Source of the DNA: an uncultured delta proteobacterium
GTDB taxonomy: Bacteria > Desulfobacterota > Binatia > UBA9968
NCBI GenBank assembly: GCA_963737905.1
Contig: CAVTUQ010000031.1
Coordinates: forward strand, 16,971-80,970
Direction: 5' to 3'
Length of the DNA stretch: 64,000 bases
Of this stretch, positions 32,552 through 47,341 are shown one piece after another. A program made the translations under genes and the position numbers. Numbering within the stretch: position 1 is the stretch's first letter; every line of letters starts with the position of its first letter. The notes below the pieces were generated by a model that was not told the DNA's origin, ran no database searches, and saw only the letters and a list, made by a program, of their open reading frames with translations.

Positions 32552-33598
32552 ATGAAGGATACTAATTTCATCATCTTGGCTCTTTTGCTGTTGTCGTCAG
32601 AGGCATGGGCGCAAGCGCAGAAGCCAGCGTCGATCGCGGAGCTTGCGAGCTACCGTGGGGCCGATCGCGAACAGGTTCTTTATGCTGGGGCAAAGACCGA
32701 AGGTAAAATAATCTGGTACACGTCTCTGGCCGGCGACTCGTACAAAGAAATGGTCAAAGCGTTCGAAGCCAGGTATCCAGGGATCAAGGTTGAATCGTTT
32801 CGGGCCCCAGGAGCTGATTTGGTTGTCCGGCTGGAAGAAGAGGCCAAAGCAGGGCGTAATATCGCGGACACCATTGAGACAACTGAGGGGAGCCTTATAT
32901 TTCTGCGCGACGAGAAACTGCTTCGTCCCTATGATTCGCTGTACCTGGACAAATATCCGGAAGACGGAAAGGAGCGAGCCAGTAAGAACCTCGTTTATTG
33001 GGCCCTAGCCAGAGAATCTTATATTGGTTTGACTTACAACACGACGCTTGTACCCAAAGACGCGGTCCCGAAGAATTTCGACGGTCTTTTTCATCCGCAA
33101 CTCAAGGGGAAAATGGGCATCAGCATCGGCCAGACAAGTGACAAAATCATCGGCGCCATGATTAAAACCAAAGGGGAAGAGACGGTTAAAAAGCTCAAAG
33201 GGCAGGAGATAAAGCTTTATTCGATCGAGGCCCCGGCGCTCGTCAACAACATCGCCGCAGGGGAGATCGTCGCGTCTCCGGCGATATTTCAGACCCACAC
33301 CTTGCTCGCGGCATCCAAGGGAGCGCCGGTGGAGTGGGTTCCTATGGATCTTGTGCCGACCAATGTGGGCAGCGCCGCCATCGCGGCCAATCCGCCCCAT
33401 CCCCATGGGGCGTTGCTCATGGCAGATTTTCTTCTTAGTCCTGAGGGACAGGGGGTGCTGGAAAAATTTTACTACGGCAGCGGCACGAAAGAGTATGGAT
33501 TCAAAAAGTGGCGTCCCGAACATGGTTTGACGACAGACCAGTATGAGAAAGAACTGAATCGCTGGGACAAATTATTGCATTCGATTACTCGCAAGTAA
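32552..33598 (+). CDS. Extracellular solute-binding protein (Fe3+/polyamine-type SBP)
   Basis: Signal peptide; AKTEGKIIWYTS, FEARYPGIKV, PHPHGALLMADFLLSPEGQ. Confidence 0.88.
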   Translation: MKDTNFIILALLLLSSEAWAQAQKPASIAELASYRGADREQVLYAGAKTEGKIIWYTSLAGDSYKEMVKAFEARYPGIKVESFRAPGADLVVRLEEEAKAGRNIADTIETTEGSLIFLRDEKLLRPYDSLYLDKYPEDGKERASKNLVYWALARESYIGLTYNTTLVPKDAVPKNFDGLFHPQLKGKMGISIGQTSDKIIGAMIKTKGEETVKKLKGQEIKLYSIEAPALVNNIAAGEIVASPAIFQTHTLLAASKGAPVEWVPMDLVPTNVGSAAIAANPPHPHGALLMADFLLSPEGQGVLEKFYYGSGTKEYGFKKWRPEHGLTTDQYEKELNRWDKLLHSITRK

Positions 33599-33715
33599 AA
33601 GAAATCATCGCAGAGTCACTAGAGTGCGCAGAGTGAAATGTCGGCATTCGCATTTTTCCATCTCGGCGTCCTCCGCTCGTCCGCGGTGAATAACCCAGGA
33701 CAAGGAGAGCCGCCA

Positions 33716-34798
33716 ATGAACAACCTACGTATTATTGACGCCGACGGACATGTACAAGAACGGGATGCCAACTGGCAGGATCTCTTAGACCCGCCGTATC
33801 GAAACCAGGCGCCGGCGATGGTGGAATTCAACGGCCGCAAGCATCTCTTGTTGGAAGGAAAGGTCTGGGCGAAGCCGAGCGGCATCGGCTGCGGCATCGG
33901 CACCGCGCCGATTACTCGCAGGCCACAGTCGACCACCGGTATGTTCGATCCGGTACAACGCATAAAAGACATGGATATGGAAGGCATCGACACGGCGGTC
34001 AACTTTGGAACCACGGTGTTCCTGAGTCTGCCATTTCTAGAGAATCATGACCTCGCTTGCGCCATCGCGCGAGGGTACAACACGTGGCTCGCGGGTTATT
34101 GCCGGACCGATCCCAGGCGGTTGAAGGGGGTTGCCTTGGTCGCGATGCAAGAGCCGGCAGAAGCGGTCAAAGAGCTGACGCGTTGCGTGAAAGAGTTGGG
34201 GTTTGTCGGCGTCGCCGTCGCTGGACACTCCGCCGGGAGAAATCTCGATCATCCTGACTTTTATCCGTTCTATGCGAAAGCCGAGGAGCTCGGCGTACCG
34301 GTCTGTGTCCATGTCGGCTCGGGCCGCCCGGCTGCGGCGGCGGAACGATTCGACAATCCGTTTTTCGTTCACGCCACGACACACGCATTCGAACAAATGA
34401 TCGGCGTCATGTGCATCGTCGGAGGCGGTATTCTCGAACGGTATCCAAAGTTGAAAGTGGTGTTTTTGGAAGCCGGCGCGGGTTGGGTACCCTATTGGAT
34501 GGAGCGGTTGGATGAGCATTATGAATACATGGCGCCCGCCGTCCCGCTGATGAAAAAACCCTTTAGCGATTATATGCGCAGCGAACAGGTTTACTATTCG
34601 TTTGAGCCGGACGAACACACGTTGAACTTTGTCATGGATTACGTCGGCGAAGATCGTTTGGTATTCGCATCGGACTACAATCACGGCGACAGCAAATTTC
34701 CGCACACCGTCGAAGCTGTGACCGGCCGCAAGAATTTGAGCGAGAGTCAGATGCATAAATTAATGGGGGACAACGCCGCGCGGCTGTACAATCTTTGA
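33716..34798 (+). CDS. Amidohydrolase family protein
   Basis: IIDADGHVQE, YNTWLA, PVCVH, LEAGAGW, FASDYNH; AAGGAG RBS. Confidence 0.92.
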   Translation: MNNLRIIDADGHVQERDANWQDLLDPPYRNQAPAMVEFNGRKHLLLEGKVWAKPSGIGCGIGTAPITRRPQSTTGMFDPVQRIKDMDMEGIDTAVNFGTTVFLSLPFLENHDLACAIARGYNTWLAGYCRTDPRRLKGVALVAMQEPAEAVKELTRCVKELGFVGVAVAGHSAGRNLDHPDFYPFYAKAEELGVPVCVHVGSGRPAAAAERFDNPFFVHATTHAFEQMIGVMCIVGGGILERYPKLKVVFLEAGAGWVPYWMERLDEHYEYMAPAVPLMKKPFSDYMRSEQVYYSFEPDEHTLNFVMDYVGEDRLVFASDYNHGDSKFPHTVEAVTGRKNLSESQMHKLMGDNAARLYNL

Positions 34799-34868
34799 GG
34801 TCGTTCAAGTCGTTCAAACCGTTCCAATCGTTCAAGCCGTAGGTCATGAATCACAGGTCGGAGGTCGG

Positions 34869-35867
34869 ATGAACAAAAAGATTCTCTGTCTGGTGCTGTC
34901 TTCGTTGTTTATAGGTTGGCACGCGGGCTATGCTCAAAACAAGCCGTTTAAGAAAATCATCTGGGGAGTCACTTCGCTTTCAGCGTCGCAGTGGATCCCC
35001 TGGATCGCCAAGGACGCCAAGATCTATGAGAAGTATGGGCTCGACACCGAGCTTGTCCTGCTGCGCGGCTCGGGACAATCCGCCCAGGCGATTATCGCCA
35101 ATAGCATTCTCGCCGCGCCTTGCACCTTGACCACCGTGATGGGCGCGGACTTGAGCGGAGCTGATCTCGTGACTGTGGCCCATACGGTTCCAGGGGTGCA
35201 AAGCAAGTTGCTGGTTAAACCGGAGATCAAACGGCCGCAAGATCTGAAAGGCAAAAAACTAGCCGTCTCCGGCTTCGGGTCTCTGGGGGATTTTCTCGAA
35301 CGTTACATTTTAAAGAAATATGGGCTGGAGCCTGGCCGAGACGTCATCATGCTTTCCATTGGGAACCAACCGGAAAGAATCCAGGCTCTGGAAACGGGAG
35401 CTGTCGATGCCGCGGACCTTTCCTTTCCCGTCGACGTGCAGGCGACGCGCAAAGGATTCAAAGTTTTGTGGGATGCTAAAAAGGAAGTCTCGTATCCGTC
35501 CATGTCGGTGGTGCTGCGGCGCAAATCCATTATCGACGATCGCGACACCGTCATGCGCATGGTCAAGGCCCACGTGGAAGCCATTCAATTTCTAAAAGCG
35601 AACAAGGAAGCCAGCACCAAAATTTTGGGGAAGTATTTAAAAACGAGCGACCGCGAGCTGCTCGACGGGGCATATGAAATTTATCGTGACGACTTTATCT
35701 CAGTTCCGTACCCGATTACGCAGGGATTACAGCCGACCTACGACTACGTCGCGCTCCAGCGGCCTGACATATGGAATCACAAACCCGAAGAGTTCATGGA
35801 CCCGAGTTTCATCGCGGAGCTGGACAAGACCGGCTTTATCAAACGGCTCTCCGAGGGCCAGCGTTAG
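34869..35867 (+). CDS. NMT1/SsuA-type ABC substrate-binding protein
   Basis: Signal peptide; WIAKDAKIYEKYGLD, DLKGKKLAVS, FMDPSFIAELDKTGFI. Confidence 0.9.
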   Translation: MNKKILCLVLSSLFIGWHAGYAQNKPFKKIIWGVTSLSASQWIPWIAKDAKIYEKYGLDTELVLLRGSGQSAQAIIANSILAAPCTLTTVMGADLSGADLVTVAHTVPGVQSKLLVKPEIKRPQDLKGKKLAVSGFGSLGDFLERYILKKYGLEPGRDVIMLSIGNQPERIQALETGAVDAADLSFPVDVQATRKGFKVLWDAKKEVSYPSMSVVLRRKSIIDDRDTVMRMVKAHVEAIQFLKANKEASTKILGKYLKTSDRELLDGAYEIYRDDFISVPYPITQGLQPTYDYVALQRPDIWNHKPEEFMDPSFIAELDKTGFIKRLSEGQR

Positions 35868-35952
35868 CCGACGGCCCCGAGAAATAGCGGGCGGCGACCG
35901 TGGAATTTTTTCGCGGCGTAGGTTAGTTCTAAGGTGAAAGGAGGTTGTTAAG

Positions 35953-37035
35953 ATGCGCATTATTGACGCAGATACCCATATCGATGAGACCGAAGACACT
36001 TGGGAATACATGGAAGAATCTGATTTGCAGTTTAAACCGACTACGGCCTATCCTTCCAACCGCAATCCGAATATGTTGCCGACGCGTTACTGGGTGATCG
36101 ATGGCAAACGCCAGCTACGTTTTATTCGCGGCGACGACGAGTCGGGTACGGTTGTAGAATCAAGGGAACTATTGGATGTGCAGGTTCGGCTCAAACATAT
36201 GGACGAGTTGGGAACCGATATCCAAGTCATCTATCCAACCCTTTTCCTGATGGAGGCCACCGAGCGCCCGGAAGTCTCAATCGCCCTGCGTCGGAGCTAC
36301 AACCGTTGGCTGGCTGACCGCTGTGGCCAATCCAATGGGCGGTTGCGCTGGATCTGTCTTCCCCCTTTGCAGCACATGGATGAAACGCTCAAAGAATTGC
36401 GCTTTGCCAAGGAGCACGGCGCTTGTGGCGTTCTCAAGAAAGGAGATCGTGAGGCCGGAAAATGGCCGGCGGATCCCTATTTCTTCCCTTTCTATGAGGA
36501 AGCAGAACGGCTTGACTTGCCCGTCTGTTTTCATACAGGTTCAGGAATCCCCGATTTCTCGCCGGCACGGGAATTTACTCTCGGGCAGTTCATGCGGACT
36601 AAGGCGGCGGCCGTCAACGGCATCGAGACGATACTCGTGAATAACATTCCAGCAAAGTACCCAAGGCTCCGTTTCGGCTGCATTGAGGCAGGCGCGTCGT
36701 GGGTGTCGTTCGTTGACTATGATCTGCGTAGACGTGTGCAATCGCGGAGCAACCGTATCAGCATACTTGGCGGCCCAAATACTATCCTCGCGAGCAATTT
36801 GTTCAAGGACAACCGTGTCTTCATCACCTGTCAGGTCGATGAGGACCTTCCTTATATTCTGAAATATGTCGGCGAGGACAACCTGATCGTTGGCTCCGAC
36901 TACACGCACCGTGACCCGTCCATGCAACTCGAATTTCGGGAGTTGTTGCAGCAGCGGGCAGATGAAGGAGAGATCCCACAATCCGTGGTGCAGAAGATTC
37001 TTTATGACAATCCAAAAGCGTTTTACGGTCTGTAG
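35953..37035 (+). CDS. Amidohydrolase family protein
   Basis: IIDADTHID, YNRWLAD, PVCFH, IEAGASW, GSDYTH. Confidence 0.92.
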   Translation: MRIIDADTHIDETEDTWEYMEESDLQFKPTTAYPSNRNPNMLPTRYWVIDGKRQLRFIRGDDESGTVVESRELLDVQVRLKHMDELGTDIQVIYPTLFLMEATERPEVSIALRRSYNRWLADRCGQSNGRLRWICLPPLQHMDETLKELRFAKEHGACGVLKKGDREAGKWPADPYFFPFYEEAERLDLPVCFHTGSGIPDFSPAREFTLGQFMRTKAAAVNGIETILVNNIPAKYPRLRFGCIEAGASWVSFVDYDLRRRVQSRSNRISILGGPNTILASNLFKDNRVFITCQVDEDLPYILKYVGEDNLIVGSDYTHRDPSMQLEFRELLQQRADEGEIPQSVVQKILYDNPKAFYGL

Positions 37036-37301
37036 TCCGAAAGAAATTTCACCACGAAGGCCAAGCTGCCCTCAGAACGCAGGGACGGAAATACATCCCG
37101 CAAAGACGCAAAGGCCGCAAAGAAATATAGGGCGGGTTTCCGAACTTCGTGTCCTTCGCTATCTTTGTGGCGAGCAAATTCTCGTTGATCTTGCGGCTAA
37201 GAAAGCCGGATTGCCAAAAGCCAAGTGGAAAACCATTCTGCTCATTGCACTGCGGTGCAATCTCTTACGGTGGCGGCGTTGCAAACCCGCTCTTATCGTT
37301 C

Positions 37302-38282
37302 TTAAACATTCACTCGTTCCATGTCGCGAGTGCGCGGGCCGGCGGCCGCGCCGGGTTTGAAAAGCTTGTCGAGCCGGGCGAGATCGTCTTGGGTCAGTTT
37401 GATGTCGATGGCCTTTAAGTTTTCTTCCAGGTGACGGCGGCTTTTGTTGCTGGGAATCGGGATGATGTCCTTACCCTGGGCTATCAGCCATGCCAATGCC
37501 AGTTGCGCCGGCGTTGCTGATTTCTCTGTAGCTATCCTTTCGAACTCGTCGAGCAATTTCAGGTTGTGCTCGAGGTTGCCGGGCTGAAAGCGCGGGTGGT
37601 GGCTGCGGCCATCGCTTTCGGCAAGGTCCTTGGGATTGTGCACTGCGCCGGCAAAAAAGCCGCGGCCCAACGGGGAATAGGCCATGAAGCCCATGCCGAA
37701 TTCGCGGCAAGCTTGAATATTGCCGCCCTCGGGATCGCGAGACCAAAGTGAATATTCCATCTGCAAGGAGACGATGGGATGCACTTTCCGCGCTCGCCGG
37801 ATGGAGTTTGCGCTGGCTTCCGATAAGCCGATATAACGGGTCTTTCCCTGTTCCACGAGGCGCGCCATGGCGCCGACGGACTCTTCTACCGGTACTTTAG
37901 GATCGACCCGCGACATGCAGAATATGTCGAGGGAGTCGATGCCGAGCCGCTTCACGCTTTGCTCGCAATTCTGCGTGAGATATTCGGGCGAGCTGCCGCT
38001 GCGATTCCCGCTGGCATCGGGGGCGCGCGGGCTGCCGGACTTGGAATGAATAACGATCCGTTCGCGCCTGCCCTTGAGAGCCTTGGCGATCAGTTCGTGG
38101 TTGTGGCCGCTGCCGTAACTGGCCGACGTGTCCAGGAAATTGATTCCCAGATCAAAAGCCCGGTGCAAGGTAGCGATGGACTCGGCATCATCGGCGGGCC
38201 CGTAAGCCCCTGACATGCTCATGCAGCCGACCCCCATGGGTGAAACTTTGAATTCCGTGGTTCCAAATTGGCGGTACTCCAT
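37302..38282 (-). CDS. Aldo/keto reductase
   Basis: MGVGCMSMS, FLDTSASYG, IGLSEAS, EYSLWSR, AYSPLGRG, PAQLALAW. Confidence 0.93.
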   Translation of the reverse strand: MEYRQFGTTEFKVSPMGVGCMSMSGAYGPADDAESIATLHRAFDLGINFLDTSASYGSGHNHELIAKALKGRRERIVIHSKSGSPRAPDASGNRSGSSPEYLTQNCEQSVKRLGIDSLDIFCMSRVDPKVPVEESVGAMARLVEQGKTRYIGLSEASANSIRRARKVHPIVSLQMEYSLWSRDPEGGNIQACREFGMGFMAYSPLGRGFFAGAVHNPKDLAESDGRSHHPRFQPGNLEHNLKLLDEFERIATEKSATPAQLALAWLIAQGKDIIPIPSNKSRRHLEENLKAIDIKLTQDDLARLDKLFKPGAAAGPRTRDMERVNV

Positions 38283-38391
38283 TGCGTGCCCTCCATTGTT
38301 TTCGGGCCCACAGTTATCGCAAATGGAATAACCAAGTCAAATCTTTTGGCTCCAATCCGAAATTCGCTTGATTTTCAACGCCAAAACGCCT

Positions 38392-38421
38392 TTGACACAA
38401 GCATCCGCACCGATTTATAGT
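38392..38421 (+). promoter_or_regulatory. Putative sigma70 promoter of UGSC module 1
   Basis: TTGACA-N18-TATAGT, followed by a GAGGAGG RBS and ATG 38460. Confidence 0.55.
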
Positions 38422-38459
38422 CGGTGTTGTCTTCTTATAACTGAGGAGGAACACTAATC

Positions 38460-39002
38460 ATGATTGTTTTGAGTCCCGAAGGGAAAGCCAAAACTTCTGC
38501 AACCCGTGTCGCCGCGCTGCCGAGGTTCGCAGATCTGAATGGGAAAGTCGTCGGGCTGCTGGACAACAGCAAGCCCAATGCAGACAAACTCGGGGAGCGA
38601 TTCGCTCAACTGTTAAGAGAGCGATTGGATGTCGGAAAGGTTGTCACGCGGCGCAAGATCAGCGCGCAGCAGGGTGCCCCCAAGGAGTATTTAGACGAGC
38701 TCGCGTCCCAGGCTGATTTTATTCTCAGTGGCCTTGGCGATTGAGGGTCCTGCACGTCGTGGAGTATCCACGACTCGATAGAGCTACAAAAGCGCGGCAG
38801 GTTTGCCGTGACGTTAATTACCCACGCTTTCGATGCTTTGGCCAAATCAGAGAAAGAGGCATTTGGCGCGCCGGATCATCCAGTGCTGGTCGTCCAGCAC
38901 CCTATCGGCACGGTGAAGGTGGAAGAAGTCAACAAACGCGCCGATGCTGCTTTCGATCATCTGGTGGAACTCTTGGTCGAGCAAAAGACAGGTAAAGATT
39001 AG
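38460..39002 (+). CDS. UGSC-family selenoprotein, copy 1 (180 aa; Sec at TGA 38742-38744)
   Basis: ORFs 38460..38744 and 38808..39002 are in one frame. Reading through TGA gives ...FILSGLGD-U-GSCTSWSIHDSIELQKRGRFAVTLITHAF... A SECIS-like hairpin follows, and a paralog shows the same arrangement. Confidence 0.9.
38756..38774 (+). promoter_or_regulatory. Putative bacterial SECIS element
   Basis: Perfect 8-bp stem GTCGTGGA-GTA-TCCACGAC starting 11 nt after the TGA; loop begins with G. Confidence 0.8.
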
Positions 39003-39011
39003 GTGCAAGTA

Positions 39012-39091
39012 CAGGTGTCAGGTTTCGGGTTTCAGGCGTCGCAGTAAAGTTTTGAAGTTGAACTGAAACCTGACACCCGACACCTGAAACC
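39012..39091. repeat. Inverted pair of 7-nt tandem arrays (caggtgt/tttcagg ... cctgaaa/cctgaca)
   Basis: caggtgtcaggtttcgggtttcag (39012-35) matches the reverse complement of ctgaaacctgacacccgacacctg (39063-86) at 21/24. Confidence 0.8.
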
Positions 39092-39113
39092 TCGAAGATT
39101 GAACGAGAGCAAC

Positions 39114-40166
39114 ATGGACGCAAGTGCAATGCAATCTGACCGAATCGAAGTTGCCGACGATCTTTGGGCCGTAAATGCCTTCTTCGAAGAGAAGGGTTGG
39201 ACGGACGGCTTGCCGATCATTCCTCCCACGGAAGAGCGGGTGGGGCAGATGATCGCGACGGGGAAACGCAATCCGCAGGACGTGATCGGGGTTGTGCCGC
39301 CTCGCTGGGCGCCGGCGACTGTAGAAAAGATCGCTATCAACGCGGTAATGGCGGGCTGCTTGCCGGAATATATGCCCGTCCTTATCGCGGCGGCGGAGGC
39401 TTTGACCGATCCCAAGCTGAATCTATACGCGCTGCAAGCGACCACGGGCGGACCGGCGATCATGTTGATCGTAAACGGTCCGATCAGAAAACAAATCAAT
39501 ATCAATGGTGGTTCCAATGTTCTCGGGGAAGGCTGGCGCGCCAACGCGACCATCGGCCGTTGCATTCGTCTCATTCAACGGAATATCGGCGGTTCCTATC
39601 CCGGAACCACATGCAAGGCAACACTAGGCTGGCCAGGTAAATACAGTCTCTGCGTTGCGGAAAACGAAGAGGCAAGTCCGTGGGCGCCGCTCCACGTCGA
39701 GCGCGGATTCGCCGCAGGCACGAGCACGGTGACGGCTATCAGCGCGGATAGCTCGGTGCGCGCGTCGGATCTCGACAGCACCAAGGGTGAAGGGATACTC
39801 AGCAATTTCGCCCGCCGGATGGACGGACCGTCGGGACCGGAAGCGATCATGGTGATCTGCCCGGAGCATGCGAAGATTATCGCCGGTGACGGTTTTAGCA
39901 AGGCCGATGTGAAGAAGTTTGTTTGGGAGCGGGCGGGCCATCGCATGAGTGAAGTGCCGGAGGAGACGTTCAACCAGAGGGTAAAGCGCCGGCCGGATTT
40001 GAAGTTGACTCGCGACAGCGTGATTCCAGTTACCGATACGCCGGAAGATATTATCGTCGTGGTAGCTGGCGGTGACGGCTCCCAGTCGCAGTATATCCAC
40101 GTCTGGGGGCAGAGCACGCCGGAAGGCGGTTCGACGCGGTCGGTGACGAAGGCGATACAGCTTTAG
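39114..40166 (+). CDS. Uncharacterised UGSC-partner protein, copy 1 (~350 aa)
   Basis: WTDGLPIIPPT, ATVEKIAINAVMAGCLPEY, ANATIGR, GWPGKY; strongly similar to 50587..51654. Start codon uncertain (39099, 39114 or 39129). Confidence 0.85.
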   Translation: MDASAMQSDRIEVADDLWAVNAFFEEKGWTDGLPIIPPTEERVGQMIATGKRNPQDVIGVVPPRWAPATVEKIAINAVMAGCLPEYMPVLIAAAEALTDPKLNLYALQATTGGPAIMLIVNGPIRKQININGGSNVLGEGWRANATIGRCIRLIQRNIGGSYPGTTCKATLGWPGKYSLCVAENEEASPWAPLHVERGFAAGTSTVTAISADSSVRASDLDSTKGEGILSNFARRMDGPSGPEAIMVICPEHAKIIAGDGFSKADVKKFVWERAGHRMSEVPEETFNQRVKRRPDLKLTRDSVIPVTDTPEDIIVVVAGGDGSQSQYIHVWGQSTPEGGSTRSVTKAIQL

Positions 40167-40399
40167 CTGAAGGTCTCGAGTTTCGGGTTTCGAGTCTCGG
40201 GTTGAAGAACCGCTTGCGCGGATATGGTTCGGATCCAGAAGAGAATTCACCGCGGAGCCGCTGATGGCGCAGAGTAAAGAGTTCTTGATCAAGAAATAGT
40301 CCGATCTCTTGAACTCTGCGTCTCTGCGGTGAAGATCGATTCCGGTTTCGGTATTCCGATTCCGCATTTTGTTTCTGAAGACGATAAGAGGGGAGATTC

Positions 40400-41398
40400 A
40401 TGTTGATAGCGAAGCGATTTGCGATTCTTTTCGTTTTTATTATAGCGGCTTCCGCTAGCCCAGCGCAGGCCCAAAGCCTGCCGAAAGTCCGCGCCGCCTA
40501 TACGTCCATAGGCATTCAATTTGATCCGGTCTACATCATGAAGGAACTCAACCTGCCGCGTAAATATGGTCTCGATGTCGAGATGCTTTTTGTCCCGGTG
40601 AGCTCGCGGGCCGTGCAAGCGGCCTTGGCGGGCGAGTTGCAGTTTATTACAAGTGGCGGCGTGGCCAATATCAACGCGAATGTGACGGGCGCCGATTTCA
40701 CCGGGCTGACGGCGACGCTCAATACGTTCGTGTTCAAGATCATTGCGAACCCGGAGCTCAAAAAGCCTGAGGATTTGAAAGGAAAGAAGATCGGGATTTC
40801 TCGGCTGGGCGGTGCCAGCGATTTTTCCATCCGCTATGCGCTGACTCACTGGGGCCTGGTTCCTGATAAAGACGTGGCCCTTATCCAGGTAGGCGGTGAG
40901 CCCGAAGAGGTTCTGGCGCTGCAAAACAAGGCCGTGGACGCGGTGATTCTATCGGAGCCGTTTGCCACCGTTGCGAGGCGGGCGGGCGCCGTTGTGCTTG
41001 CTGACCTAAGTCAGCTCGGTGCGCCTTACACGATGCATGGCATCGGAGTGCGAAAGAGTTATATTAAGGCCAATCGGGACGTCGTCGTTCGTTTCATGAA
41101 AGCCTATCTCGAGGGCATCTATGTCTTCAAAACGAACAAAGAAGTTGCGCTGAACGTCCTGAAAAAATATACGCGGCTCGACGATCTCTCGCTGGTGCAA
41201 GTGTCTTACGACGAGATGTCCCAGAGATTGATCCGTAGAGTTCCTTACCCGGAGCCCGAAGGCATTCAAACCATCATCGATCAACTCGCCAAGACCCGCC
41301 CGCAGATGAAAAATCTCAATCCCAACGACTTCATCGATCCGACGATTTTGAAGGAGATCGAAGACAGCGGTTTCGTCAAGAAGCTATATGGAAATTGA
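40400..41398 (+). CDS. NMT1/SsuA-type ABC substrate-binding protein
   Basis: Signal peptide ending AQA; DLKGKKIGISRLG; FIDPTILKEIEDSGFV. Confidence 0.9.
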   Translation: MLIAKRFAILFVFIIAASASPAQAQSLPKVRAAYTSIGIQFDPVYIMKELNLPRKYGLDVEMLFVPVSSRAVQAALAGELQFITSGGVANINANVTGADFTGLTATLNTFVFKIIANPELKKPEDLKGKKIGISRLGGASDFSIRYALTHWGLVPDKDVALIQVGGEPEEVLALQNKAVDAVILSEPFATVARRAGAVVLADLSQLGAPYTMHGIGVRKSYIKANRDVVVRFMKAYLEGIYVFKTNKEVALNVLKKYTRLDDLSLVQVSYDEMSQRLIRRVPYPEPEGIQTIIDQLAKTRPQMKNLNPNDFIDPTILKEIEDSGFVKKLYGN

Positions 41399-41416
41399 TT
41401 AACCAGGGGGTTTGCA

Positions 41417-42493
41417 ATGATCATTGACGCCGATGCTCACGTCGAAGAGTCGCAGGCGATGTTCGATCGCCTGGATAAAGAGTATTACAGCCGCCGGCCG
41501 CTGCCGGTCCGCTTCGATGGCGATACGATTTTCGGTAAGTACAACGCGGTGTGGCTTATAGAAGGGGAGACTTATCCCAAGCTGGTCGGTAAAGGCGGGA
41601 CCATTTTCCGCACGCCTACTCTTATGGAAGCCGCGTCGTTGAAGCGGGAGAGTATTGACGCTCAGGAGATGACCGACATCGATGCGCGGCTCAGGGATAT
41701 GGACAAGGTCAAGATCGACATACAGGTCGTCTTTCCCAGCCTTTTCTTGACGACTACCGCTGACGATTTACGCCTGGAAGCAGCCCTGCTGCGGGCCTAC
41801 AATAGTTTTCTTGGGGAATGCAGCGCTGCATCGAAAGGAAGAATTCGGTTTGGCGCGCTGGTGCCGATCCGGGATATCGATGCATCGATAAAAGAAATCA
41901 AGCGGGCGGCAAAAATCGGTGCGGCAGGGATCATGTTGCACGGCATGGCATGGGACAAGCTCTTGGGTGACGAAAGCTTGTTCCCGTTCTATGAGGAGGC
42001 GGCCAATTTGAACCTACCCATTTGTGTCCACCTCGGCTGGGGCTGTCCCGCCATGACCGATATCTTTGATGCCTCGACGAATTTTTACAGTGCCATACTG
42101 CCGGTCACCATGGGGTTTCACAGCATTCTAACTTCGAATGCGTTCGAAAGAATTCCGAATCTCAGGTTTGGCTTCTTGGAAGCCGGCTGCGGCTGGGTGC
42201 CTTATGTCGCAAGACAAGTGAGAAGAGACAACGCCCGGCGCAGGGAAGCCAAGGACCCGATCGAGTACTTTCAGGCCGGCCGCGTCTTCGTCACTTGCGA
42301 AGCGGACGAGGACATCAACGGTGTCGCCCAAGTGATTGGCGAGGATTCGTTTGTGCTTGGCTCAGACTACCCCCACGGCGATCCGTCGCGCCAGGAAGAC
42401 ATGGTGGCAGAGTTCCGAGAAAGAAAAGATCTCTCGTCCCGCCTGGTCGAGAAAATGCTTTCCGATAATCCGAAAAGGCTCTACGGTCTATAA
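41417..42493 (+). CDS. Amidohydrolase family protein
   Basis: MIIDADAHVEE, PICVH, LEAGCGW, GSDYPH. Confidence 0.92.
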   Translation: MIIDADAHVEESQAMFDRLDKEYYSRRPLPVRFDGDTIFGKYNAVWLIEGETYPKLVGKGGTIFRTPTLMEAASLKRESIDAQEMTDIDARLRDMDKVKIDIQVVFPSLFLTTTADDLRLEAALLRAYNSFLGECSAASKGRIRFGALVPIRDIDASIKEIKRAAKIGAAGIMLHGMAWDKLLGDESLFPFYEEAANLNLPICVHLGWGCPAMTDIFDASTNFYSAILPVTMGFHSILTSNAFERIPNLRFGFLEAGCGWVPYVARQVRRDNARRREAKDPIEYFQAGRVFVTCEADEDINGVAQVIGEDSFVLGSDYPHGDPSRQEDMVAEFRERKDLSSRLVEKMLSDNPKRLYGL

Positions 42494-42640
42494 GGGGAAA
42501 TTGGGGTCAACCACAAAGATCGCAAAGGGCATAAAGAAAATTTGTCTTCTGTGCGTACTTTGCGGTTAGGGCCTGTGAAACCTCTTCCCCCTCGACGGGG
42601 GAAGACAGAGATATAAGGGTGATAACCCAGGGTGTCTCAA

Positions 42641-42664
42641 ATTTGATTCACCCCTGAATCAAAT
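42641..42664. repeat. Perfect 10-bp inverted repeat upstream of the binding-protein array
   Basis: ATTTGATTCA-CCCC-TGAATCAAAT. Confidence 0.75.
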
Positions 42665-42916
42665 CCGCTACGCCTGGTGGTTGACGCCCAGGGTCCACCC
42701 AATTCTCGTCGTGAAAATCTTCCATCATTACAATATGTTTCTGGTCCATTCTCTTTCTGCCAAACTGTGGTATATCGCTTGCTCCATAAACTGACACGTC
42801 ATCGTATAGGTGGGAGGCGGTGGGGGCGACGACTTGAACGTCTTGCACGGTTTGAACCACTTGAACTATTTTAGCTCGGTGTTCGGCGGTCTCACCTTTA
42901 GAAAGGGGGAGTCCTG

Positions 42917-43921
42917 GTGCAAACTCAAAGTTCCAAAATAATTAACCTCATAATCGTACTAATCGTGATGATTCTTTTGTGGACACCTCTCATCGAGGCG
43001 CAGCCGACGCAGAAGACTGCTCGGATTGGGCTCCTAGGCGGCATGTCCGCTTCGACCTTTGCGGAGCGGATGGAAGTATTCCGCCAGCAGCTCTTGGAAC
43101 TAGGTTACATAGAGGGAAAAAATATGATCTTCGAAGAACGTTGGGCGGAGGGAAAGCTGGAACGTCTTCCCCATCTCGCGTCCGAATTGATCGGACGGAA
43201 GGTCGACGTGATGGTCACGTTCGGCGGTGCCGCACCCGCTACGGTCGCCAAGAAAGCGACCAGCACCATTCCCATTGTCATGGCGGCGGGCGGCAGTGAT
43301 CCTGTGAAAGCAGGTTTAGTCATGAGCTTTGCTCGTCCGGGCGGGAATATCACTGGGCTCGCGAACAGTTTCACGGAGTTACGCGGCAAGCAAATGGAAC
43401 TCCTCCAAGAGACCATCCCCAAACTCTCTCGGATCGCGGTTATCTGGAACCCTGAGAGTCCTGCAGGCGCCACTCGGTACCGAGAGACGCAAGAAGAGGC
43501 GCGAGCACTAGGACTTAGGTTGCAAAGCCTCGAGGTGCGTAAAGCCGACGATTTTGAGAATGTGTTTCAGGCCGCAAAGAAACAACGTGTCGGTGCGCTT
43601 CTCGTAACCGCCAACCCATTGATGTTTACAAACTTCAGCCGCATCGCTGGGCTCGCGACAAAGAACCACCTGCCCGCCATCCATTCGCAGAGAGAATTTG
43701 TCGAAGCCGGCGGATTGATGATGTACGGACCGAGCGAGGCAGAGATCTACCGTCGCGCGGCCATTTACGTTGACAAGATTCTAAAAGGTGCGAAGGCCGC
43801 CGAGTTGCCGGTGGAACGACCGTCAAAGTTTCAACTCATATTTAATCTCAAAACCGCCAAACAGATCGGGTTAACAATTCCTCCTAATGTTTTGGCGAGA
43901 GCCGACAAAGTAATCCGATGA
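42917..43921 (+). CDS. ABC_sub_bind family substrate-binding protein
   Basis: [54 protein letters not shown]. Confidence 0.92.
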   Translation: MQTQSSKIINLIIVLIVMILLWTPLIEAQPTQKTARIGLLGGMSASTFAERMEVFRQQLLELGYIEGKNMIFEERWAEGKLERLPHLASELIGRKVDVMVTFGGAAPATVAKKATSTIPIVMAAGGSDPVKAGLVMSFARPGGNITGLANSFTELRGKQMELLQETIPKLSRIAVIWNPESPAGATRYRETQEEARALGLRLQSLEVRKADDFENVFQAAKKQRVGALLVTANPLMFTNFSRIAGLATKNHLPAIHSQREFVEAGGLMMYGPSEAEIYRRAAIYVDKILKGAKAAELPVERPSKFQLIFNLKTAKQIGLTIPPNVLARADKVIR

Positions 43922-44064
43922 TGAGCACTGCGTGCGTTCCAATGGTTCCAAATGTTCCAGTTCCAGCCGTTCTAATCGTCTGAGAACGAAATCAAGCAAA
44001 AAGCACAAGCGCGTGACGTAATGACTCAAGCTTTCTAAACACTAATTTAATCCGGGGGAAACCG

Positions 44065-45045
44065 ATGCCCACTATCCTCTTCCTCGCTCTCCTCGCTTCT
44101 TTAATCTCGGTGTCTTCACAAGTGGTCGAGGCACAACAGACAAAGAAGGTCCCACGGATCGGTATTTTGCGAGCGGGCGGGCCGCCTCCCAGTGGCTTTC
44201 CCGATGAATTCCTTCAGGGGCTTCGGGATCTCGGCTACATAGAACACAAAAATATGGTTATAGAGATCCGCTATGCCGAGGGTAACCGAGATCGATTGCG
44301 CGAATTAGCAAAGGAACTCGTCCGCCTGAAGGTGGATGCAATCTTTACCGCTTCCAGTCCAGCTGTTTTTGCTCTCAAACAAGCGACGAACACCATCCCG
44401 ATCATCATCGTAAGCTCGACCGATCCGGTTCAGGCTGGTATCGTCGCTAGTTTGGCAAACCCCGGTGGTAATATCACAGGCATGTCTCTGATTGCGTCAG
44501 ACCTTTGGCCCAAGCGATTGGAGTTGCTTAAGGAAATTCTCCCTAAAGCCTCAAAAATCACCATGTTTTGGAATAAGAGCAATACCGGCATGGCGATTGA
44601 GGCGAAAGCAACCCGAGAGGCAGCCGGAGTAATGGGGGTTACGTTGCAGGACGGAGGTGTGAAAGACGACGGGGAGATCGACGCGGTTTTTGAGGCAATA
44701 AATAGGGAGAGACCGGACGCGTTTCTCGCGTTAATGGATATAACGCTCCGTGCTCACCGGAAACGGATTTTGGAGTTTTTAGAAAGAAATCGCTTGCCGG
44801 CAATATTCGAAAGCAAAGACTGGGTCGAGGCCGGCGGACTTATATCCTATGGGGCAGACAGTTCTGCGGTTACACGGCGAGCCGCCCTTCAAATGGACAA
44901 GATCCTCAAAGGCGCAAAGCCCTCTGAGATTCCTGTCGAGCAGCCAATGAAATTTGAGCTCGTGATCAATCTCAAAACCGCCAAGCAAATTGGCCTGACG
45001 ATTCCACCGAACGTGCTGGCCAGAGCGGACAGGGTCATAAGATAG
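44065..45045 (+). CDS. ABC_sub_bind family substrate-binding protein
   Basis: Same family motifs; closest in the window to 46364..47341 (shared SLxASDLWPKRLELLKE, FWNKSN). Confidence 0.92.
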   Translation: MPTILFLALLASLISVSSQVVEAQQTKKVPRIGILRAGGPPPSGFPDEFLQGLRDLGYIEHKNMVIEIRYAEGNRDRLRELAKELVRLKVDAIFTASSPAVFALKQATNTIPIIIVSSTDPVQAGIVASLANPGGNITGMSLIASDLWPKRLELLKEILPKASKITMFWNKSNTGMAIEAKATREAAGVMGVTLQDGGVKDDGEIDAVFEAINRERPDAFLALMDITLRAHRKRILEFLERNRLPAIFESKDWVEAGGLISYGADSSAVTRRAALQMDKILKGAKPSEIPVEQPMKFELVINLKTAKQIGLTIPPNVLARADRVIR

Positions 45046-46183
45046 CAGGGAGCAAGGAGCATGGAGCGGTACAACGCGGGAGGAATCCATGAGAAAAATA
45101 TTCTTCGGTCTTAAGATTAGCCCTTTGCCCTTTGCGCTTAGCTCAGTCGGCGCTCTGCTTTTTGCACTTTGCTCGTCGGTTGAGGCGCAGCAGCCGGGCA
45201 AAATCCCGCGGATCGGATTTTTGCAGCGAAGAGTGGCACCTACCCCTACCAATCCCGATCCGCTTTGGGACGCTTTTCGGGAAGGGCTAAGCGAGCTTGG
45301 TTACATAGACGAAAAGAATATCAAGATAGAGCACCGCTATGCGGAGGGAAGGACGGACCGTCTGCCGGGACTCGTCGCCGAATTTCTGCAACTGAAGGTC
45401 GATGTGATTGTGGTGCCAGGTGGCCCGGCAATCCGTGCAGCCAGAAAAGCGACTACTACCACTCCGATTGTTATTGTGACTCAAGAAGATCCAGTGACGG
45501 CTAAGTTCGTTCAAAGTCTGGCGCGCCCCGGCGGTAACATCACTGGTCTTACCAGACTTACCAGCGAATTGAGTGGCAAACGGCTAGAGTTATTCAAAGA
45601 AGCGGTCCCGGCGATCTCGCGCGTTGCGATTCTTATAGGAGGCGGGGATTTTCGGGGAAATGTTGAAGACTACGAGGGAGCTGCCCGTGGCCTCAATGTA
45701 ACTCTGTTGCCGGTACGTCTGACTGGTCCCAAGCCCAATCTTGAAGATCCGTTTCAATCCGCTGTCAAAGCGGGCGTAAACGCTGTTGTTACTAACCGCG
45801 ATGCGCTGACCGCAAGTTACGCGAAACAGATCGCGGACCTTTCGATAAAGCACCGGCTGCCCTCGATGAACGAGGATAGTCCGTACGTAGAAGCCGGCGG
45901 CCTCATGTCTTATGCAGCCAACGACGCCGAACAATTCCGACGCGCCGCGTACTACGTGGACAGAATTTTAAAGGGAACCAAGCCTGCTGATCTGCCCATT
46001 GAACAGCCGACAAAGTTCGAGTTCGTCATCAATCTCAACACAGCGAAGCAGATCGGCCTGACGATCCCGCCGAATGTGCTGGTTAGAGCGGACAGAGTCA
46101 TCAAATAGCATGGAGCAGGGAGCAAGGAGCATGGAGCGGCACAACGCGGGAGGAATCCATGAGAAAAATATTCTTTGGTCTTA
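45044..46183 (+). repeat. 70-bp direct repeat (45044-45113 and 46114-46183) covering heptamer array, RBS and first codons
   Basis: agcagggagcaaggagcatggagcggYacaacgcgggaggaatccatgagaaaaatattcttYggtctta, 68/70 identical. Confidence 0.9.
45089..46108 (+). CDS. ABC_sub_bind family substrate-binding protein
   Basis: [42 protein letters not shown]. Confidence 0.92.
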   Translation: MRKIFFGLKISPLPFALSSVGALLFALCSSVEAQQPGKIPRIGFLQRRVAPTPTNPDPLWDAFREGLSELGYIDEKNIKIEHRYAEGRTDRLPGLVAEFLQLKVDVIVVPGGPAIRAARKATTTTPIVIVTQEDPVTAKFVQSLARPGGNITGLTRLTSELSGKRLELFKEAVPAISRVAILIGGGDFRGNVEDYEGAARGLNVTLLPVRLTGPKPNLEDPFQSAVKAGVNAVVTNRDALTASYAKQIADLSIKHRLPSMNEDSPYVEAGGLMSYAANDAEQFRRAAYYVDRILKGTKPADLPIEQPTKFEFVINLNTAKQIGLTIPPNVLVRADRVIK

Positions 46184-46347
46184 CGCTTAACCATTTGCTC
46201 TTTGCGCTTTGCTCGGTCGGCGCTCCGCGCTTTACGCATCGCCGAGGCACAGCGGCCGGAGAAAACTGCTCGGATTGGGCTTCTAGGCAGCATGTCGGCT
46301 TCGACATTCGCGGATGGGGTTCGATAACCGTGCAGGCAGTTAATTAA
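46159..46347 (+). pseudogene. Truncated chimeric ABC_sub_bind 5' fragment
   Basis: Leader resembles the 45089 gene. The segment ~46244-46314 (gaggcacagcggccggagaaaactgctcggattgggcttctaggcagcatgtcggcttcgacattcgcgga) matches the 42917 gene at ~42994-43064. Frameshifted and truncated. Confidence 0.8.
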
Positions 46348-46363
46348 TTACCAGGATAATACC

Positions 46364-47341
46364 ATGAAAAAAAACATCGGCGTTTTAACCTTGGTCGCGC
46401 TTGTTATTTTCCCGATATATGCTGCCACTGCGCAGCAACAATCAACGATTCCCCGGATCGGGATTTTGCGAGCGGGGGCGCCTCCAGACGCCACTCTGCA
46501 ATCCTTCCTGCAGGCGATGCGAGAACTCGGTTATCTCGAAGGGAAAAATATCCTCATTGAAATACGATACGCGGAAGGCAACCAAAAACGTTCTGCCGAA
46601 CTTGCAAGGGAGCTGGTCAAACTCAACGTTGACGCGCTCTTCACCTCGGGTACGCGAGCCATTCTCGATCTTAAGGAGGCGACGAAGGTTATCCCCATTG
46701 TCTTTGTCAGCACGAGTGATCCGATTGGCACTGGCATGGTCGAGAGTCTGGCGCAACCCGGAGGCAACCTGACAGGTATGTCCCTGCTCGCCTCTGATCT
46801 CTGGCCCAAACGCTTAGAGCTGCTTAAGGAGATGCTTTCCAAGCTTACACGCGCGGCGATGTTCTGGAACAAGAGCAATGCTGGGATGGGGCTCGAAGCG
46901 AAAGCAACGTTGGAATCAGCGGGTACATTGGGTGTCGTTTTGCAAGATCGGGGAATGAAAGACACGAATGAGCTCGAGACGGTTTTAGGAATGATAACAA
47001 AAGATCCTCCCGATGGGTTACTCGCTATGATGGATTTAAGTCTGAGGCCACACCAAAAGCGGATTCTTGAATTTTTAGTAACCGCCCGCATTCCGGCGAT
47101 TTTTGAAGATAAGAACTGGGTGGAGACCGGGGGACTGGTGTCCTATGGGCCAAGCTCTGTTGACGTGATTAGACGCGCGGCCATCAAGATGGACAAGATT
47201 CTCAAAGGCGCCAAGCCGGCCGATCTTCCGGTTGAGCAGCCGATGAAGTTTGAGTTTGTTATCAATCTGAAGACTGCAAAGCAGATCGGCCTAACCATTC
47301 CGCCCAACGTGCTGGCGCGGGCGGATCGAGTCATAAAATGA
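46364..47341 (+). CDS. ABC_sub_bind family substrate-binding protein
   Basis: [42 protein letters not shown]. Confidence 0.92.
   Translation: MKKNIGVLTLVALVIFPIYAATAQQQSTIPRIGILRAGAPPDATLQSFLQAMRELGYLEGKNILIEIRYAEGNQKRSAELARELVKLNVDALFTSGTRAILDLKEATKVIPIVFVSTSDPIGTGMVESLAQPGGNLTGMSLLASDLWPKRLELLKEMLSKLTRAAMFWNKSNAGMGLEAKATLESAGTLGVVLQDRGMKDTNELETVLGMITKDPPDGLLAMMDLSLRPHQKRILEFLVTARIPAIFEDKNWVETGGLVSYGPSSVDVIRRAAIKMDKILKGAKPADLPVEQPMKFEFVINLKTAKQIGLTIPPNVLARADRVIK

Follow-up and report, generated by a model that had tools for sequence, protein, structure and literature searches.

A UGSC-family selenoprotein gene of an uncultured Binatia bacterium, its apparent kinship with GrdB/PrdB and its linked partner gene

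The window analysed here, that is the whole stretch of 64,000 nucleotides, probably carries a real selenocysteine (Sec) gene of the UGSC family, whose product has a GrdB-like Sec module and would make up a two-part redox enzyme together with the partner protein encoded beside it. The main competing explanation, which we consider rather unlikely, is that the UGSC protein is a dedicated electron carrier only, taking the part of a thioredoxin with another fold, its U95/C98 pair feeding a catalytic cysteine in the partner without ever meeting the substrate. The features of the window on which the analysis is based are collected in Table 1.

Table 1. Coordinates of the UGSC genes, their partners and associated elements within the window.
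Feature	Position	Strand	Details and basis
Shine-Dalgarno-like GAGGAGG	38443..38449	+	10 nt upstream of ATG 38460; read directly
UGSC-family selenoprotein gene	38460..39002	+	180 codons plus TAG (39000-39002); translation, HMM matches, AlphaFold model
In-frame TGA, predicted Sec codon U95 of the U-G-S-C98 motif	38742..38744	+	Conservation in relatives, register with the GrdB-like Sec
SECIS-like hairpin, 8-bp stem GUCGUGGA/UCCACGAC, loop GUA	38756..38774	+	Begins 14 nt past the UGA, counted from its U; RNA fold
Long intergenic hairpin of GGTGTCAGGTTTC-like repeats	39012..39086	+	In the spacer that separates the UGSC and partner genes
Partner gene, 350 aa	39114..40166	+	From ATG 39114; alternative TTG 39099; unnamed family, invariant Cys87 (355-aa numbering)
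Second UGSC gene, 179 codons	49550..50089	+	TGA 49835-49837; hairpin about 49850-49866
DUF559 endonuclease-like gene	50178..50552	+	PF04480, E 1.3e-41; separates the second UGSC gene from its partner
Second partner gene, 355 aa	50587..51654	+	47% identical to the first partner

The UGSC gene and the reading of its TGA

Translation table 11 splits the reading frame of the UGSC gene into two ORFs (38460-38744 and 38741/38808-39002), which an earlier note on this DNA had joined over the TGA at 38742 into a protein of 180 amino acids containing GLGD-U95-GSCTSWSIHD. This was confirmed from the frame and from a full-length family match: with TGA translated as U, 38460-39002 yields 180 residues with a single TGA, reading ...LSGLGD-U95-GSCTSWSIHDSIELQKRGRFAVTLIT..., and PF24696 (Pfam UGSC) matched residues 3-173 of the 180 residues of the joined protein (E 4.8e-46; 157.5 bits against a cut-off of 25). 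The NCBIfam model NF041046, named 'UGSC family (seleno)protein', was matched with 129.5 bits (cut-off 125), and the gene is a member of this known, uncharacterised family. Since the PF24696 match spans both sides of the TGA, homology continues past this codon, one of the two points on which the earlier note had let the selenoprotein proposal depend. Within the motif, S97 and C98 were invariant among 16 sequences. The close database homologs were of three kinds, namely proteins ending at the TGA codon (approximately 52% query coverage), proteins with W printed at this position and proteins with Cys there; the TGA column of the UGSC gene aligns to Cys in the last group, and the Cys homologs that the earlier note had suggested looking for are indeed present.

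The gene corresponds to what Zhang and Gladyshev described as 'UGSC-containing protein' (PMC1976440; PMC2398784), with the U-G-S-C motif, a length of about 180 aa and adjacency to or fusion with a second domain in common, the 'Unknown_1' of those authors, of which the partner is presumably a representative. Recognition of the family goes back to the Sargasso/GOS surveys, and its fusion to the domain 'Unknown_1' was noted in 2008 (PMC2398784). A UGSC gene is recorded for Hyphomonas neptunium in PMC1976440. Nothing essential differs between our gene and the published family, and only the fold assignment departs, being 'likely Trx-like' in the literature and flavodoxin/CheY-like in our model. The literature found on UGSC together with selenoprotein or glycine reductase consisted of surveys and reviews only. 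UGSC is listed as uncharacterised in a 2026 review (PMC13188914), in agreement with the earlier note, which had described a family known from surveys and having no assigned function.

Conservation of the TGA was evaluated within the order, using 41 genomes that include the host genome and two genomes flagged as unpublished (G006 and G012). UGSC was present in 35 of the 41 genomes, and exactly one TGA was observed in 80 of the 84 UGSC matches, these genomes being kin and the counts hence not independent; the remaining four matches were contig-end fragments that do not reach the Sec column. The host genome has three UGSC genes, all of them intact and each with one TGA. The hairpin downstream of the TGA is found at the identical offset in all three paralogs, and the GrdB-like selenoprotein genes of the host genome carry a hairpin at the same offset as UGSC. 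Over 32 loci with 26 distinct sequences, pairing was seen in 93.8% of cells compared to 19-51% when the partner columns were slid, four of the eight pairs showed changes on both sides and none of 500 shuffles reached the covariation score, statistics that support the hairpin but do not prove it, as they were obtained computationally from kin sequences within coding DNA. Furthermore, selA (606.9 bits), selB (409.8 bits) and selD (381.4 bits) were all detected above their cut-offs and are clustered on contig C29. This cluster of selD, selB and selA extends over C29:71024-75669, and its selD has an in-frame TGA of its own (Sec-containing SelD). Together, the conservation of TGA and hairpin, the full-length homology and the presence of selA, selB and selD indicate that the TGA is read as Sec; judged from the sequence, the TGA at 38742 is a genuine selenocysteine codon, read with the help of the downstream mRNA hairpin.

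The earlier note had also called for a check of the Sec machinery in the genome, the outcome of which was divided: selA, selB and a selD that itself contains Sec were all located, whereas selC was not found in the assembly, which is 87.5% complete and consists of 46 contigs. ARAGORN reported no tRNA-Sec among the 44 tRNAs of the assembly, and the 'tRNA-SeC' candidates obtained at a low threshold were dropped due to poor stems. The best matches to RF01852 reached 46.6 bits against a cut-off of 47 and were Leu/Ser tRNAs. None was found near the sel cluster on contig C29, and no tRNA is present at the syntenic selC site on contig C10. A 95-nt tRNA-Sec was identified in four of the five relatives searched, one of them belonging to the same genus (73-78 bits; 97% conserved), and BLAST of these sequences against the assembly gave no match. 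Because of the incompleteness of the assembly, the missing tRNA-Sec is most likely an assembly gap.

The missing tRNA-Sec gene is also what would favour reading the TGA as a true stop, in which case the locus would consist of two small genes, or be a decayed pseudogene, and yield no selenoprotein. We regard this as very unlikely in view of the full-length Pfam match over the TGA, the TGA and hairpin conserved in 32 loci, the intact state of all three paralogs, the presence of selA, selB and selD and the tRNA-Sec found in four of the five relatives, including one of the same genus. The chance that TGA encodes a standard amino acid genome-wide (tables 4 or 25, with Trp or Gly as the residue), as the W printed here in homologs by several metagenome gene callers would have it, is negligible, since five of the 20 well-supported genes of the window end at an ordinary TGA stop with complete Pfam domains, making the recoding site-specific and ruling out general reassignment, and since dedicated Sec machinery is present and homologs of the Cys form have their Cys in this column.

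Relation to GrdB/PrdB and predicted fold

The GrdB/PrdB family (GrdB/GrdF/GrdH/PrdB; TIGR01918, TIGR01917, TIGR04483 and PF07355) comprises selenoprotein B of glycine/sarcosine/betaine reductase and of D-proline reductase. A resemblance of UGSC to the Sec region of these proteins, pointed out in the earlier note, gained support from both HMM searches and profile alignments. The UGSC protein of the window itself showed no match to any of the four models up to E 10. Its paralog P0002 matched TIGR01917 (E 0.019; residues 81-162 on profile positions 326-402) and the GrdB-like protein matched NF041046 (E 0.0041; residues 334-412 on profile positions 55-134), matches that are reciprocal but weak. 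The score of P0002 was 13.9 bits against a GrdB/PrdB family cut-off of 602.2, and no GrdB/PrdB model's cut-off was reached. When 48 UGSC sequences were aligned by hhalign to 32 GrdB-like sequences (29 loci of relatives, with L082 left out, and three from the host genome), a probability of 94.5% was obtained (E 7.5e-8), superseding an earlier hhalign run with three GrdB-like sequences only (13.9%). The C-terminal halves alone gave 96.3% (E 1.5e-9), with UGSC residues 85-174 on GrdB-like residues 338-423 and Sec on Sec, and the controls gave 0.5% for reversed GrdB, 0.4% for reversed UGSC, 0.1% for the partner family and 0.2% and 0.5% for the crossed halves. The N-terminal halves are collinear (VGLLDNS-KPNAD vs VMLITDGGLVPKGNPD) at 3.6% and E 0.012, which is suggestive only, and the confident alignment is limited to the C-terminal half. 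In a homolog search with the GrdB-like C-terminus, one of 79 proteins covered the region and nearly all others ended at the TGA.

Common to GrdB/PrdB and UGSC are a hydrophobic strand followed by Sec, G-[ST]-x-T, a helix ending in E-L-x-K-x-G, a strand and an H-x-x-G turn, and in both a second subunit is encoded next door. In contrast to GrdB/PrdB, UGSC is devoid of the 200-residue N-terminal GRDB region and of an insert of approximately 60 residues, and its neighbour is not the GrdE/PrdA pyruvoyl proprotein (PF09338). Assignment of UGSC to GrdB/PrdB as a member was rejected, as no family cut-off was reached and a pyruvoyl-subunit neighbour is absent. From these comparisons, UGSC looks like a PrdB-sized core, distantly homologous to the C-terminal GrdB/PrdB portion that bears Sec and shortened relative to these proteins.

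Three full-length GrdB-like genes are encoded in the host genome, with the motif ILTST-U-GTSTRSG...ELEKAGIP and a TGA at U, and a GrdE-like PF09338 gene is located upstream of each (pairs at C34:76609-79284, C9:237848-240556 and C38:872-3510 of the host assembly). Clostridial GrdB has Cys where the motif ILTST-U-GTSTRSG of the host has Ser. GrdB-like genes were present in 32 of the 41 genomes, with up to 20 per relative genome, and represent a large, apparently non-Stickland expansion of reductase B-type selenoproteins.

The AlphaFold2 model of the UGSC protein, built from a 16-sequence alignment (pLDDT 89.8, pTM 0.84), has the topology b-a-b-a-b-[U]-a-b-a-b-a, corresponding to five alternating strand/helix units. 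In this model, U95 would directly follow strand 3 (87-93) at the point where helix 3 (96-111) begins, with Cys98 one turn on. Foldseek against the PDB returned flavodoxin-like neighbours (AzoR, flavodoxin, PTS IIB and receiver domains; TM 0.33-0.51), and VIA-align over 48,161 chains returned generic alpha/beta domains (Z 8.7-11.6); no thioredoxin-fold chain was among the matches listed by either program, which is not proof alone. A sequence search of the PDB gave a best E of 1 for UGSC and 0.19 for the GrdB-like protein, the PDB copy used containing no GrdB/PrdB chain. Like the thioredoxin-fold UxxC/CxxC oxidoreductases (Trx, Prx-like and DsbA-like proteins), UGSC has its UxxC at the N-terminus of a helix, and real thioredoxin-fold modules are fused to the partner family of UGSC in some organisms. 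However, the redox motif of the thioredoxin fold precedes helix 1, whereas that of the UGSC model precedes helix 3 and no beta-beta-alpha motif is present. Since the predicted topology is without this motif, the 'likely Trx-like' fold given for UGSC in PMC2398784 and PMC13188914 is not supported by the model. The earlier note had likewise argued against a thioredoxin fold, and the alternating beta/alpha, flavodoxin/CheY-like prediction sides with it.

The partner gene, its pairing with UGSC and the surrounding region

In the host genome, the three UGSC genes are matched one-to-one by three partner genes, with a partner after each UGSC gene. In all of 32 loci (three of the host and 29 of relatives), the partner was the neighbour of UGSC and shared its strand, mostly downstream and in four cases upstream, and both genes occurred in the same 35 of the 41 genomes and neither in the same six. 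The second pair of the window (49550-51654) lies 11 kb downstream of the first and is split by the insertion of the DUF559 gene. In the copy on contig C19 (L023:1465-3153), UGSC and partner are fused in frame to approximately 560 codons with one internal TGA, and under table 11 this fusion is cut into ORFs of 100 and 431 aa.

Fusions were scanned in 71 partner representatives of more than 380 aa, chosen by eye from 150 clusters listed of 5573. UGSC was found in the same ORF as the partner in 46 of the 71 (E <= 0.001) and in both domain orders, with six of these 46 ORFs being post-TGA fragments below the 25-bit cut-off. The architectures comprised full UGSC-partner fusions, partners preceded by just the post-TGA piece of UGSC, and partner-UGSC fusions ending at the TGA, and six further long representatives were tandem duplications of the partner. 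An N-terminal AhpC/TSA-Redoxin domain was observed on the partner in P0287 and P0318. The catalytic-chain domain of ferredoxin-thioredoxin reductase (FTR; PF02943, FeThRed_B) was present at the N-terminus of P0286 and, together with UGSC, at the C-terminus of P0295, and these FTR-domain fusions hint at a ferredoxin-linked electron supply.

The partner showed no Pfam or NCBIfam match even at E 10. A word-based search identified more than 7985 homologous proteins, typically of 350 aa and all annotated as 'hypothetical', and an exhaustive search grouped the family into 5573 clusters at 50% identity. Residues P39, G86, C87, G127, G153, R154, E188 and G324 were invariant in 61 sequences, and the near-invariant residues include the DGLPxxPPT motif, C185 and E190. 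Using the AlphaFold model of the partner (pLDDT 95.4), Foldseek found nothing at E <= 0.001, the best E being 0.011 with a TM of 0.2 (rows for fumarate hydratase and cyanuric acid hydrolase). VIA-align gave partial matches only, with a best Z of 6.3 over 87 residues, mostly within residues 142-346 and barely covering the N-terminal third. No whole-chain fold match was thus found for the predicted structure, for which we do not claim a new fold. A protein-atlas search with the partner led only to further clusters of its own family, either without a name or with an automatic 'thioredoxin family' label, which we take as a lead only. The partner was also considered as a diverged pyruvoyl subunit, a candidate that was dropped when hhalign against the GrdE-like protein of the host gave 0.4%.

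The intergenic hairpin between UGSC and partner is 75 nt long and near-perfect (-37.8 kcal/mol, z -3.57), and the GGTGTCAGGTTTC-like motif occurs within the window only at this site; the hairpin may serve as a REP-like element, as an attenuator or to stabilise the mRNA. The local context of the UGSC pair consists of binding-protein genes, Amidohydro_2 genes and one aldo-keto reductase. Solute-binding-protein (SBP) genes are abundant in 32552-47341 of the window, where SBP and Amidohydro_2 genes alternate three times (32552-37035, 40400-42493) and four consecutive ABC_sub_bind (TrpX-like) genes are found at 42917-47341.

Proposed function and its significance

The UGSC protein and its partner most likely constitute a two-part selenol/thiol reductase. 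UGSC would be one subunit of this enzyme and the 350-aa neighbour (39114-40166) the other, contributing Cys87 and invariant Arg, Glu, Asn and Thr residues. In a first step, the selenolate of Sec95 would work at the active site of the partner, the Cys87 pocket, where its target would be a bound substrate or else a cysteine of the partner in oxidised form, the substrate option being modelled on the PrdB Sec acting upon PrdA-bound proline. Cys98 would subsequently resolve the adduct to leave an internal Se-S bond, which may then be re-reduced via a thioredoxin-type or a ferredoxin-thioredoxin-reductase-type system. We infer the physical contact between UGSC and partner as well as the chemistry and the electron donor.

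In D-proline reductase, the Sec of PrdB attacks PrdA-bound proline and a U151C variant is inactive (PMC11229817). By analogy, a PrdB-like variant of the UGSC reaction, with Sec95 attacking the substrate, is a possibility that we hold tentatively. Since the partner is without likeness to GrdE/PrdA (0.4%), GrdB-style chemistry is not simply transferable, and a redox-relay role for Sec fits the fusion data equally well as a substrate-attacking nucleophile.

A role of UGSC as electron carrier only would agree with the UxxC motif and its invariant Cys98, with the AhpC/Redoxin or FTR-like modules that are fused to the partner in place of, or beside, UGSC, and with two cysteines of the partner itself, of which Cys87 is invariant and Cys185 nearly so. 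Against such a role stands the homology toward GrdB/PrdB, where Sec works on the substrate (PMC11229817). Moreover, the Global Ocean Sampling (GOS) table in PMC2398784, which places UGSC among the most abundant selenoprotein families, gives 255 Sec forms and 21 Cys forms, and such an excess of Sec is unusual for a mere carrier.

Returning to the two-part reductase, we speculate that UGSC and its partner may be a separate and very widespread class of selenium-dependent reductases, in which the Sec module of GrdB/PrdB was kept, the pyruvoyl subunit was swapped for a cysteine enzyme with no whole-chain fold match, and electrons are delivered by thioredoxin- or FTR-type modules. Two elements did not appear in the accessible portions of the UGSC literature, namely a quantified GrdB-like Sec-module homology set against a non-thioredoxin fold prediction, and partner fusions to FTR-like modules. 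For annotation, it matters that gene callers cut UGSC genes at the TGA, as many database entries start or stop there and the fused forms are halved. The kinship with the GrdB/PrdB module combined with a predicted fold other than that of thioredoxin, an obligate partner with an invariant cysteine and the alternative fusions to thioredoxin-fold or FTR-like modules make the biochemistry of UGSC testable. If the proposal of a separate reductase class is true, a selenoprotein that ranks among the most abundant in aquatic environments would perform reductive cleavage and not generic thiol-disulfide exchange.
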